Below, one piece after another: positions 1,264 through 7,005 of a stretch of DNA of 31,263 nt. Source of the stretch: a virus. Its lineage: Duplodnaviria > Heunggongvirae > Uroviricota > Caudoviricetes. The notes below the pieces were generated by a model. It was not told where the DNA came from. It ran no database searches and saw nothing but the letters and a program-made list of their open reading frames with translations. Position 1 is the first letter of the stretch, and the number at the start of each line of letters is the position of its first letter. The position numbers were made by a program, and so were the translations under genes. The stretch is from the IMG/VR virus record IMGVR_UViG_2654587588_000015, positions 1-31,263 of that record, one strand, 5' to 3'.

Positions 1264-1474
1264 AAAACGGAAACCTGATTACAGATTCCCAGATAAGGCA
1301 ATGAGCTACCTGGCGTAGAGTGGGCTGATAAGTATGGGGAATGTTTTACGATGAATATTTAGACTAAAGAGTTTGTAACGCTATGTAAGTGATTTTTTCT
1401 GGTTTAGATATTTATATGTCCGGCTAAATTGAGGTGTGTTTAAATGTTATTGCACATTGATTGTAGGGGGAATA

Positions 1475-1654
1475 ATGAAAAACGCATTGCAGTTTTTGTT
1501 TGTTGCGTTCTGGTTGTTCGCATCATGTATGCCCATCATCTTCACAGCAAGGTATATGGAAAAAATTGATGTTTTGATATTAATGTTTGGACATATAAAT
1601 GTCCTTTTTTTAGGGGTGTTCATGGCGGTCACGTGCATTGAATACTGGCGGTAA
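1475..1654 (+). CDS. Small hydrophobic membrane peptide (59 aa)
   Basis: ATG 1475 preceded by GGGGGAATA RBS; two hydrophobic stretches; AT-rich local composition. Confidence 0.4.
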   Translation: MKNALQFLFVAFWLFASCMPIIFTARYMEKIDVLILMFGHINVLFLGVFMAVTCIEYWR

Positions 1655-1856
1655 ATACAGCGAACGCTATTGGTTTAGTTGGATATTTACTGTGCCGGAC
1701 AAAAACGGTTTGCAGGGAAATCTTAGTTAAGTAGAATGACTGTGGGTGCTTGAGGCTATCTGTCTCAGGCATGAACACCAAAAGGCAGATAGAGAAAAGC
1801 CCCAGTTAACATTACGCGTCCGGCAAGACGCTTAACATTAATCTGAGGCCATATCT

Positions 1857-1916
1857 ATGCGACACATAGAGATTAGCCTCTTACGGACCGAAAGGTCAAG
1901 GAGAAGCAGGCTATGA
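1857..1916 (+). promoter_or_regulatory. Short leader ORF (19 codons) whose TGA overlaps the hok ATG (ATGA), mok-like translational coupling element
   Basis: ATG 1857, in-frame stop at 1914-1916 overlapping hok start 1913-1915. Confidence 0.35.
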
Positions 1917-2068
1917 AGCAGCAAAAGGCGATGTTAATCGCCCTGATCGCCATCTGTTTAACCGTCATAGTGACGGCACTGGTAACGAGGAAAGACCTCT
2001 GCGAGGTACGAATCCGAACCGGCCAGATGGAGGTCGCTGTCTTCGTAGCCTACGAATCTGAGAAGTAA
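1913..2068 (+). CDS. hok: Hok/Gef-family type I toxin (51 aa)
   Basis: Translation MKQQKAMLIALIAICLTVIVTALVTRKDLCEVRIRTGQMEVAVFVAYESEK closely matches recalled HokC/Gef; below the ORF-track length cutoff. Confidence 0.85.
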   Translation: MKQQKAMLIALIAICLTVIVTALVTRKDLCEVRIRTGQMEVAVFVAYESEK

Positions 2069-3226: not shown

Positions 3227-3516
3227 TGGTGGATTTACGTAAAGCGGCGCGGGGCCAGATGTGCCAGGTCAGAATCCCTGGCTACTGCAATCACAATCCC
3301 GAAACGTCTGTGCTGGCGCATTACCGACTGGCGGGAACGTGCGGAACGGCGATAAAGCCACACGATATGCAGGCAGCGATTGCCTGTAGCTCGTGCCACG
3401 ATTTAATCGACGGGCGGGTAAAAACCAGCGATTACACCAAAGAAGAATTACGCCTGATGCACGCAGAAGGTGTTTTTCGCACACAAGAAATCTGGAGAAA
3501 GGAAGGTTATTTATGA
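3226..3516 (+). CDS. YbcO-like (DUF1364) Cys-rich putative nuclease (96 aa)
   Basis: Start overlaps the upstream stop; multiple Cys/His; sits in the nin region before Q. Confidence 0.6.
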   Translation: MVDLRKAARGQMCQVRIPGYCNHNPETSVLAHYRLAGTCGTAIKPHDMQAAIACSSCHDLIDGRVKTSDYTKEELRLMHAEGVFRTQEIWRKEGYL

Positions 3517-4067
3517 TTTACCCAACGAATACAGGAAAAAGCGGAGAACACCTTCGTCTCACCACGCTGGAAAGTGTCTGGATTCAGGGAAAACTGCGTA
3601 TGTGGGGGCGCTGGTCGTATATTGGTGGCGGTAAGACGGGGAATATGTTCAACCAGTTGTTGACCTCTAAAAAGCTGACAAAAACGGAAATTAACGAGGC
3701 GCTCCGCAGGATGAAAAAAGCAGGTCTGGACAAACCTGAACTTGAGGCTTTTTTGCGGGGTATGATTAACGGCAAGCAAAAGAGCTGGCTGGCACATTGT
3801 ACCGATTCAGAGGCATTAATAATCGACAGGGTTATTGGCGAAGTACTGGCAGAACACCCAGGATTGATTTGTATCCTCCAGCAACGATATGAAGGGAGTG
3901 GGATGACTAAGCGAAAAATGGCTGAATTGCTGAATGATTCACACCCTGAGTGGTGTTACGCCACGTGCCGTAATCGCATAGATGCGTGGTTGAAAATGGC
4001 AGAGTTTATGCTCTATCTGCCGATGCGTGATGCATTCTCTTCCGGGGATTTAAAAACTGTCTGTTGA
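3513..4067 (+). CDS. Late-gene antitermination protein Q-like
   Basis: ATG 3513 overlaps upstream stop (ATGA); gene is immediately followed by a promoter-like element and terminator, upstream of the lysis genes. Confidence 0.6.
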   Translation: MIYPTNTGKSGEHLRLTTLESVWIQGKLRMWGRWSYIGGGKTGNMFNQLLTSKKLTKTEINEALRRMKKAGLDKPELEAFLRGMINGKQKSWLAHCTDSEALIIDRVIGEVLAEHPGLICILQQRYEGSGMTKRKMAELLNDSHPEWCYATCRNRIDAWLKMAEFMLYLPMRDAFSSGDLKTVC

Positions 4068-5532: not shown

Positions 5533-5749
5533 ATATACTCCTTTAATTGATATGGTTACTTTTGGCGATTTAACGATATCAAACACGAGGATATACCGCC
5601 AGAAGCTTAATCTGGTACTCCATCTGGCCCTGGCATGTCCCGGGGCTTTTTCGTTGTTAGGCTCCGGAAACATCCTCGACTTCTTGTGAGCAAGCCAGAG
5701 AGCCTGAATCTTACATTTAGCACCATCCGAACTTTCGGAGGTGAGGCTT

Positions 5750-6091
5750 ATGAAAATGCACAATGTCCCTCATTCCTGGCCTGACTTACTGGAACTCTTA
5801 CAAAGTTGGTGGCGTGGAGATACGCCGCTGGGTGCAGTGGTTATGTCAATTATTATGGCTGGTTTGCGCATTGCCTATTTTGGCGGTGGCGGCGGCTGGA
5901 AACGAAAAACGCTTGAGATTCTGCTTTGTGGTGCTCTGACGCTGACCTTTGCATCCGCGCTTGAGTATGTCGGATGGCCTAAATCACTTTCTGTTGCCAT
6001 TGGTGGTGGGGTGGGGCTGATTGGTGTTGATGCTATTCGTGGTGCGGCAATGAGGGTCATCGGTAACAAGTTCGGTGCCCATAAGGAGTAA
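5750..6091 (+). CDS. S: Lambda S-like class I holin with M-K-M dual-start motif
   Basis: MKMHNV N-terminus (ATG 5750 and ATG 5756) after GGAGGTGAGG RBS; hydrophobic segments; C-terminal region resembles lambda S. Confidence 0.8.
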   Translation: MKMHNVPHSWPDLLELLQSWWRGDTPLGAVVMSIIMAGLRIAYFGGGGGWKRKTLEILLCGALTLTFASALEYVGWPKSLSVAIGGGVGLIGVDAIRGAAMRVIGNKFGAHKE

Positions 6092-6094
6092 TTA

Positions 6095-6571
6095 ATGCAG
6101 ACACTTAATTCCCAGCGTAAAGCTTTCCTTGATATGGTGGCATGGTCAGAAGGAACGGATAACGGGCGACAACCGACACGTAACCACGGTTATGATGTTA
6201 TTGTTGGTGGCGAACTGTTCACTGATTACTCCGATCACCCTCGCAAACTTGTCACGCTAAATCCGAAACTCAAATCAACAGCCGCCGGACGTTACCAGCT
6301 TCTTTCACGCTGGTGGGATGCCTACCGCAAGCAGCTTGGCCTGAAAGACTTCTCTCCGAAAAGCCAGGACGCTGTTGCACTGCAGCAGATTAAGGAGCGT
6401 GGCGCTTTGCCGATGATTGATCGCGGTGATATCCGTCAGGCTATCGACCGTTGCAGCAATATCTGGGCTTCACTGCCGGGGGCTGGTTATGGTCAGTTCG
6501 AGCATAAGGCTGACAGCCTGATTGCAAAATTCAAAGAAGCAGGCGGAACGGTCAGAGATATTGAGGTATGA
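6095..6571 (+). CDS. R: Endolysin, lambda R-like lytic transglycosylase
   Basis: Protein nearly identical to recalled lambda R ([22 protein letters not shown]...); RBS AAGGAG. Confidence 0.93.
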
Positions 6572-7005
6572 GCAGAGTAACCGCGATTATCTCCGCTCTG
6601 GTTATCTGCATCATCGTCTGCCTGTCATGGGCTGTTAATCATTACCGTGATAACGCCATCGCCTACAAAGAGCAGCGCGACAAGGCCGCATCCATCATCG
6701 CTGATATGCAGAAGCGGCAACATGATGTAGCAGAACTCGACGCCAGATACACAAAGGAGCTTGCTGATGCTAATGCGACTATCGAAAGTCTCCGTGCTGA
6801 TGTTTCTGCTGGTCGTAAGCGCCTGCAAGTCGCCGCCACCTGTGCAAAGTCAACGACCGGAGCCAGCGGCATGGGCGATGGAGAAAGCCCAGGACTTACA
6901 GCAGATGCTGAACTCAATTATTACCGTCTCAGAAGTGGAATCGACAGGATAACCGCGCAGGTTAACTACCTGCAGGAATACATCAGGACGCAATGCCTGA
7001 AATGA
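6568..7005 (+). CDS. Rz: i-spanin Rz
   Basis: Start overlaps R stop (ATGA); N-terminal TM segment; high similarity to recalled lambda Rz. Confidence 0.85.
6761..6952 (+). CDS. Rz1: o-spanin Rz1 lipoprotein, embedded in the +1 frame of Rz
   Basis: Signal peptide with lipobox LVVSAC, proline-rich mature part; wholly inside Rz. Confidence 0.75.

Follow-up and report, generated by a model that had tools for sequence, protein, structure and literature searches.

The locus and its small open reading frame

The window, by which we mean the whole 31,263-nt stretch of DNA that was analyzed, is a lambdoid prophage of the Qin-like type. A 72-codon frame is open from GTG 1436 and contains a 59-codon open reading frame (ORF) that extends from ATG 1475 to the stop codon TAA at positions 1652 to 1654 and encodes the peptide MKNALQFLFVAFWLFASCMPIIFTARYMEKIDVLILMFGHINVLFLGVFMAVTCIEYWR. 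The ORF has the same orientation as its neighbors and lies upstream of a Q-like antiterminator gene (DUF1133/Phage_antitermQ, 3513 to 4064). Genes for DUF1367, YbcO, and ORF6N proteins are also found downstream on the same strand, followed farther along by an S-family holin gene (5741 to 6088), Rz (6568 to 7002), and the gene of the small terminase subunit. The Q-like, holin, and Rz genes all lie downstream of the ORF, which places it in the delayed-early, nin-type region and distinguishes it from the lysis holin. A promoter scan, which is an insensitive method, found no consensus sigma-70 promoter upstream of the ORF, and no plus-strand terminator was found between the ORF and the upstream genes; we therefore infer that the ORF is transcribed with the early rightward operon.

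A hok/sok locus follows on the same strand, with the hok coding sequence beginning 258 nt downstream of the ORF. The Rfam sok model spans positions 1744 to 1915, which places the ORF outside the hok transcript and about 90 nt upstream of it. The first-pass annotation, made from the letters of the sequence alone, had described a 59-amino-acid ORF starting at ATG 1475 with a strong ribosome-binding site, in an AT-rich stretch just upstream of hok. Each part of this description holds on closer analysis: a Shine-Dalgarno sequence lies 4 nt before the ATG, hok is confirmed by its Pfam domain, and GC content is 0.31 in the leader and 0.38 in the ORF versus 0.495 in the whole window (Table 1).

Table 1. 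Coordinates of the features at the ORF and the adjoining hok locus
Feature	Coordinates	Strand	Basis or remark
CDS of 59-aa small membrane protein (clade A)	1475..1654, stop included	+	Direct read, cross-clade conservation
Shine-Dalgarno sequence AGGGGG	1465..1470	+	Direct read; 4 nt before ATG 1475
In-frame GTG extension (72-aa form of some GenBank records)	1436..1474	+	Probably untranslated as part of the protein
AT-rich leader/intergenic region	1355..1474	+	Composition (31% GC); no consensus sigma-70 promoter
63-aa opposite-strand ORF (83 aa in relatives)	1447-1638	-	Two stops in clade B
Hydrophobic segment 1, residues 4-24 (TM helix 1 or signal-peptide h-region)	1484..1546	+	Hydropathy, AlphaFold
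Lipobox-like F-A-S-C, residues 15-18	1517..1528	+	PROSITE PS51257-like rule
Hydrophobic segment 2, residues 33-55 (TM helix 2, block LMFGHxNxLxxGVF)	1571..1639	+	Hydropathy, AlphaFold
T7 homopolymer, site of frameshift variants	1605..1611	+	T6 gives 45-aa, T8 gives 55-aa product
hok promoter-like site TTTGCA-17-TAGAAT	1709..1737	+	Immediately before Rfam model start at 1744
hok/sok locus (hok CDS 1913-2068)	1744..2068	+	Rfam RF01794, 106.7 bits; Pfam HOK_GEF, E = 3.5e-21

Relatives of the ORF form two clades, clade A, to which the window belongs, and a deeply diverged clade B. Comparison between them supports the ATG as the start of the protein. The Shine-Dalgarno sequence can pair with the anti-Shine-Dalgarno sequence if one G-U pair is included, a substitution (G1468A) turns it into AGGAGG in 5 of the 36 distinct aligned relatives, and its counterpart in clade B is AGGGA, upstream of the clade B ATG. 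The proteins of both clades begin with M-K/R at this Shine-Dalgarno-preceded ATG. The longer form that starts at GTG is unsupported, as the upstream frame in clade B stops at a TGA 2 nt before the ATG. An alternative 41-amino-acid ORF at 1444 to 1569, preceded by GAGGTG, was also discarded; it has a stop at codon 2 in 14 of the 36 distinct relatives (T1448A). The leader is highly conserved within clade A and is only weakly alignable, with many gaps, to that of clade B.

Phage records ON470612, ON470619, and PV340562 give the opposite-strand ORF the name "hornerin" or call it a hypothetical protein. It was rejected as a gene because its frame is closed in clade B, and to judge from this comparison the call is almost certainly a mis-call that displaces the real gene. 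The locus thus makes a test case for small-gene annotation, combining unambiguous conservation with no pipeline call and with a spurious opposite-strand gene in some phage records.

Several further observations concern the neighborhood of the ORF. The gene upstream (847 to 1263; 138 amino acids, phrog_660) is a shortened version of a 171-amino-acid protein of relatives (e.g., locus L005, 4440 to 4955); as compared by eye, an internal stretch of about 30 amino acids is missing and a frameshift follows, so that positions 1264 to 1354 of the window represent the decayed 3′ end of the gene. Its equivalent in close relatives is marked by PGAP as frameshifted or as having an internal stop. Downstream of hok, an 83-amino-acid ORF (2304 to 2555; phrog_1813) occupies the position of rem in relatives and sits behind a very AT-rich stretch (2176 to 2325; GC 0.25) with two minus-strand promoter-like sites. 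A 15-nt direct repeat with 13 of 15 positions identical occurs at 1478 to 1492 (AAAAACGCATTGCAG) and 1701 to 1715 (AAAAACGGTTTGCAG). The first copy forms codons 2 to 6 of the ORF. The second extends into the hok -35 element and falls at the onset of homology to 933W-type hok modules (about 1697 to 1701). The repeat could be a recombination junction or could be there by mere chance. An imperfect, gapped direct repeat also brackets the ORF, at about 1400 to 1424 (TGGTTTAG..ATATTTA..TGTCCGG) and about 1671 to 1699 (..TGTGCCGG); it was spotted by eye, the repeat tool returned only an 11-nt core, and clade B partly keeps the downstream copy.

Two clades in Escherichia coli and Shigella

The 301 bases around the clade A ORF were found in 1,568 of 5,426 complete E. 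coli genomes at 90 to 99% identity, with identity of at least 95% in all but five records. The matches lie in Qin-like lambdoid prophages and in the cryptic Qin remnant. Clade B (P0038/P0043, MRKILMYLCISIWIVISCVPIILTSEYLTEASIMALMFGHANALCIGVFISIIYIECWR), recovered when 1.84 billion representatives were searched exhaustively with phmmer (E = 3.9e-9), is likewise exactly 59 amino acids long. Its locus, found in 1,045 of the 5,426 complete genomes, is what is left of a prophage at the attachment site of Rac, between ttcA and uspF; the exact P0043 sequence is carried on at least 1,000 contigs and is listed in 3,751 index blocks. The clade B remnant measures about 2 kb (locus L092, 6984 to 9169) and retains the ORF intact, along with fragments of an integrase gene, of a dead hok, and of sitD (ABC-3). 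At another locus (L096), it adjoins a further prophage that is fuller and has a complete sitABCD-like operon. Among named strains, ATCC 25922, whose record names the protein, carries clade A, and ATCC 11775 carries clade B.

When one genome was scanned for each of 185,579 species, the hosts were E. coli and Shigella only, and a search of 5.8 billion proteins with the clade A protein retrieved close relatives only. No third clade appeared when a two-clade profile was compared with the 5.8 billion proteins, in a profile scan of IMG/VR, or when a single protein was scanned against one genome per species. What emerges is a narrow orphan family whose two clades occur in E. coli and Shigella alone.

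Standard annotation passes over the ORF. PGAP placed no feature on it in the 60 clade A rows or the 30 clade B rows inspected, and where GenBank or UniRef records do include the product, it is named only "hypothetical protein" or "membrane protein." If translated, the ORF would be a widespread accessory membrane protein of E. coli that RefSeq annotation omits. K-12 MG1655 has the ORF in neither Qin nor Rac; the absence of both clades from K-12 explains why the ORF is missing from K-12 small-protein work, which could not have detected it. One genome labeled DH5alpha (NZ_CP026085.1, 4.83 Mb) carries the clade A segment together with Qin genes that are absent from the Qin prophage of MG1655, and its label may therefore be wrong. 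Literature searches with the peptides and their UniRef identifiers found no mention of them, and neither peptide appears in the supplements to the papers on Sakai Ribo-seq and on Enterobacteriaceae smORFs.

The association with hok extends across both clades. In clade A, an intact hok is present in 70 of 81 evaluable loci and begins 261 to 262 nt after the ORF in 69 of them and 251 nt after it in one. In clade B, a dead 3′ fragment of hok (VTKKDLHQVRI*GGQMEVDIY) lies about 55 nt past the stop codon and shows 82% nucleotide identity to positions 1981 to 2042 of the window. Because hok or a fragment of it trails the ORF in both clades, the arrangement predates the split between them. Modules of hok without the ORF also exist: homology to 933W-type phages begins only at about 1697 to 1701, and 4,937 genomes match some part of 1300 to 2200 versus the 1,568 that match the ORF region. 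A recent survey of Hok does not mention an ORF-like neighbor of hok, and the conserved linkage is apparently undescribed so far. The second clade, this linkage, and the lipobox-like motif treated below are additions to what the first-pass annotation contained.

Evidence for the ORF as a probable gene

Length says little about the coding status of the ORF. ATG-started ORFs of at least 59 codons occurred in 24% of dinucleotide-preserving shuffles of positions 1264 to 1743, and length was rejected as evidence for coding (P ∼0.2). The codon-usage log-likelihood relative to the long genes of the window was uninformative as well, with hok scoring about 0 and the spurious minus-strand ORF scoring higher. 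Composition with a period of three is more telling. T occupies codon position 2 in a fraction of 0.53 of the codons, GC3 exceeds GC12 by 0.21, and these values together with the hydropathy were reached with a joint P of 2.5e-4 among about 4,000 same-strand chance ORFs, each 55 codons or longer, drawn from shuffled sequence. The hydrophobicity is partly a by-product of T-rich sequence.

The strongest evidence comes from the comparison between clades. The clade A and clade B proteins align end to end with no indel, at 25 identities out of 59 to the window protein and 27 out of 59 to the commonest clade A allele, and they have the blocks SCxPIIxT, LMFGHxNxLxxGVF, and IExWR in common. The two ORFs are 59% identical at the nucleotide level, with 35, 41, and 30 of 60 identities at codon positions 1, 2, and 3, respectively. 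Only the ORF frame is open in both clades among the six frames, and it yields 25 protein identities, versus 14 to 17 in the other five. When the 74 nucleotide differences were placed at random, 26 or more identities were reached with P = 1.5e-4 (25 were observed, or 26 with the stop), and the frame stayed free of stops in 8% of trials. Divergence between the clades amounts to a pN of 0.34 and a pS of 0.72, corresponding to a dN/dS of about 0.19 with dS near saturation. The flanks are weakly but detectably homologous (z = 3.1 to 3.7) and contain about 14 gap openings per 160 nt, while the 180-nt ORF contains none. An ungapped frame under purifying selection between clades is, at the level of sequence comparison, the signature of a protein-coding gene. 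Polymorphism in clade B is lower in the ORF (0 of 180 sites) than in the flanks (10 of 421), which is suggestive but carries little weight since the difference stems in part from picking the loci by exact protein match.

The first-pass annotation had proposed a check of conservation across related prophages and held that a lack of it, together with no sign of translation, would speak against the ORF. Such conservation is present: 84 of 85 related clade A loci keep the frame intact, and the ORF is under purifying selection between the clades. Constraint within clade A appears to be weak or relaxed in recent times, given that the common polymorphisms (A16V, I31V, M37I, H40Y, V43A, and T53M) comprise six non-synonymous and no synonymous changes. 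The IFGY allele, one of the major ones, alters M37 and H40, which are conserved between the clades. No intact hok accompanies it at 8 of its 11 loci, and those 8 belong to the cryptic Qin that IS elements have disrupted. For the MFGH allele, hok is intact at 66 of 68 loci. The pattern of the IFGY allele fits relaxed selection in a decaying prophage, among copies that are phylogenetically non-independent. The variants truncated at the T7 run are found together on about 150 contigs, and the three commonest intact clade A alleles on at least 1,000 contigs each and at least 3,000 together. The T7 run is not regarded as a programmed feature because clade B has no such run.

An explanation without any gene, in which a chance frame is open in an AT-rich spacer and any role is non-coding (e.g., a terminator at 1589 to 1611 that insulates hok), is very improbable. 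It could draw on the frequency of such ORFs in shuffled DNA (about 20%), on the hydrophobic products that T-rich DNA encodes by itself, on the missing PGAP call, on the wholly non-synonymous common polymorphisms of clade A, and on a terminator-like hairpin followed by T7 inside the ORF, but it leaves the open, indel-free frame between gapped flanks, the low dN/dS, and the composition test unaccounted for. The terminator reading of the hairpin (1589 to 1604) was itself rejected. The stem is perfect in this window only and needs T1602, a base private to the window that is also the source of its private V43; all other distinct aligned copies have C at this position, which breaks the stem, and clade B has neither hairpin nor T run. 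A long-range inverted repeat (1407 to 1421 with 1589 to 1603) depends on the same private base. No ungapped non-coding element common to both clades was found. Collectively, it is highly likely that the ORF at 1475 to 1654 is a real small membrane-protein gene, and the two clades very probably constitute a real, uncharacterized family of such genes in E. coli prophages. Such a tiny and narrow family also fits a young, possibly dispensable ORFan, which tempers the coding claim.

Fusion variants were also seen in clade A. In four variants (P0017, P0035, P0036, and P0037), the N-terminal part of the ORF is fused to unrelated peptides that recur across variants, such as ...IDWPPESPDNQYHLNK and ...GFAPIFPDTCYHLTHYW... 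These fusions may represent read-through into the ends of inserted mobile elements, for which the AT-rich ORF would be a recurrent insertion target.

Predicted membrane topology and candidate functions

The protein is strongly hydrophobic (GRAVY 1.19). AlphaFold, supplied with an alignment of six sequences, predicts helices at residues 2 to 25 and 30 to 58 that form a two-helix hairpin (mean pLDDT, 72.8), in keeping with the two hydrophobic segments seen in hydropathy and with the two-helix peptide described in the first-pass annotation. A fold search against BFVD returned nothing at E ≤ 0.001 (best E, 0.44). The protein has no family match in Pfam, PHROGs, NCBIfam, or PADLOC, whereas PHROGs does match neighboring genes (e.g., phrog_660 and phrog_1813). 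DUF4212 gave weak matches (E = 0.032) to three of the six aligned sequences, which are below any threshold.

We consider it likely, as the best explanation overall, that the ORF is a genuine gene of the delayed-early prophage region for a 59-residue integral inner-membrane protein. The protein would be expressed mainly as part of the rightward early transcript and would insert as a hairpin with both termini in the cytoplasm, as the positive-inside rule predicts from the N-terminal K/R, the C-terminal R, and the acidic or neutral loop; the short loop between the helices would then be periplasmic. In this arrangement the blocks S17-C18-x-P20-I-I-x-T24 and L36-M-F-G-H40-x-N42-x-L44-x-x-G47-V-F would lie opposite each other in the outer half of the bilayer. 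The conserved Ser, Cys, Pro, Gly, His, and Asn residues suggest more than a simply greasy helix, namely a surface for specific packing or binding. The two best-conserved blocks could thus form an intramembrane contact surface, through which the protein would bind a membrane partner or self-associate in an accessory, envelope-directed phage function, and it would not be a non-specific membrane-damaging toxin. This partner-binding, non-toxic mechanism is tentative at best, resting as it does on the pattern of conservation only.

A lipoprotein precursor is a rather unlikely alternative to the hairpin. Residues 1 to 17 would act as a signal peptide, with lipidation and cleavage by Lgt/LspA at Cys18, and the mature 42-residue lipopeptide would have two anchors in the inner membrane, its acyl chains and the C-terminal helix (33 to 55). 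Both clades conform to a PROSITE PS51257-like rule (K/R in the n-region, an uncharged h-region, [LIVMF..]-[..]-[AGS]-C, and the Cys at position 15 to 35): Cys18 closes the sequence F-A-S-C in clade A and V-I-S-C in clade B, and a K/R falls among the first 7 residues. The pair S17-C18 does not vary among the six aligned sequences that represent the two clades. The conservation profile is also signal-peptide-like, residues 1 to 16 being the least conserved (4 of 16 identical) and residues 17 to 24 being identical at 6 of 8 positions. Shuffling segment 1 produces the motif in about 6% of trials, however, and rare S17L and C18G variants occur. The residues after the Cys, which in E. coli lipoproteins are usually polar, are hydrophobic (M/V-P-I-I-F/L) and atypical here, the hydrophobic run of 21 residues (4 to 24) has the length of a transmembrane helix, and AlphaFold renders it as one continuous helix. 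The ORF product resembles the small phage and colicin lipoproteins (Rz1-type o-spanins, entericidins, and bacteriocin release proteins) in the size of the precursor, the N-terminal K/R, the hydrophobic stretch, and the lipobox-like [AS]-S-C at position 18. It differs from these lipoproteins in that the putative mature part has a 23-residue hydrophobic helix and that the Cys is followed directly by hydrophobic residues; it shares no sequence similarity with them, and the Rz/Rz1 region of the phage lies elsewhere.

A membrane-damaging toxin (Hok-, GhoT-, or TisB-like) or a holin- or pinholin-like pore former appears improbable. Such a protein would kill or depolarize the host on induction or would form a toxin-antitoxin or abortive-infection module with hok. 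GhoT is a type V toxin of about 57 amino acids with two transmembrane helices, and class II or pinholin-type holins also have two. The small size and the layout as a two-helix membrane hairpin resemble GhoT and these holins, and in both clades the ORF adjoins a type I toxin in the same orientation. The product is also like Hok/Gef proteins (PF01848) in being a hydrophobic inner-membrane peptide of about 50 to 60 amino acids with a conserved Cys, encoded in the same prophage module and orientation. Unlike them, it has two hydrophobic segments versus one in Hok, lies outside the hok mRNA, shows no mok/sok-type regulatory RNA structure by Rfam, and has no sequence match to the family, with HOK_GEF leaving the ORF unmatched at E values up to 10 in the same search that scored the neighboring hok. 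Toxin, holin, and defense families in Pfam, PHROGs, NCBIfam, and PADLOC gave no match at E values up to 1 to 10; this covers the GhoT/OrtT and holin families in Pfam and PHROGs, and PADLOC-DB matched neither clade at E values up to 10. The canonical cassette of S holin, endolysin, and Rz lies elsewhere (5741 to 7005), outside which the ORF stands, and no partner antitoxin gene accompanies it. The search for an antisense promoter or a conserved antitoxin-like element came back negative: Rfam had no match over the ORF, and the promoter scan gave no minus-strand promoter-like site within 1400 to 1750, although an antisense RNA could have escaped so insensitive a method. On the opposite strand, the frame contains stops in clade B. 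The intact state of clade B in 1,045 genomes, in a remnant with a dead hok and no visible regulator, argues against an unregulated toxin, and the conserved polar and small helix residues suggest specific packing.

Slightly less probable still is a superinfection exclusion or protective factor that would block DNA entry or the development of incoming phages. T4 Imm and HK97 gp15 are small inner-membrane exclusion proteins encoded in phage accessory regions, and the ORF product likewise is a small phage-encoded inner-membrane protein from a low-GC accessory region. Its preservation in the clade B prophage remnant would fit a benefit to the host. Unlike those proteins, it has no match in PHROGs or PADLOC, and these searches showed no similarity to known exclusion or defense proteins. 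No consensus promoter was found for expression in the lysogen, and the position in a delayed-early operon suggests lytic rather than lysogenic expression.

Two further, more speculative readings we regard as a long shot. The protein might be a functional partner of Hok that modulates its insertion or toxicity or gives tolerance to it, in which case a membrane (lipo)peptide would travel with hok as one module. It might alternatively have been domesticated by the host, with clade B kept intact at the Rac site in about one-fifth of E. coli genomes after the decay of the remaining prophage and of its hok. The position next to hok in two deeply diverged versions offers a concrete, easily testable lead on the role of the prophage hok module.

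Intergenic microproteins under purifying selection in Enterobacteriaceae were surveyed in "The Cryptic Bacterial Microproteome" (PMC11188072). The ORF peptide was not found in the accessible part of the supplementary text of that study. The ORF product resembles these microproteins in length class (15 to 70 codons), in its location between annotated genes, in being hydrophobic with predicted transmembrane segments, in having no Pfam domain, and in being under purifying selection and skipped by standard annotation. It differs from them in being prophage-borne and linked to hok, and in comprising two clades only, in E. coli and Shigella.
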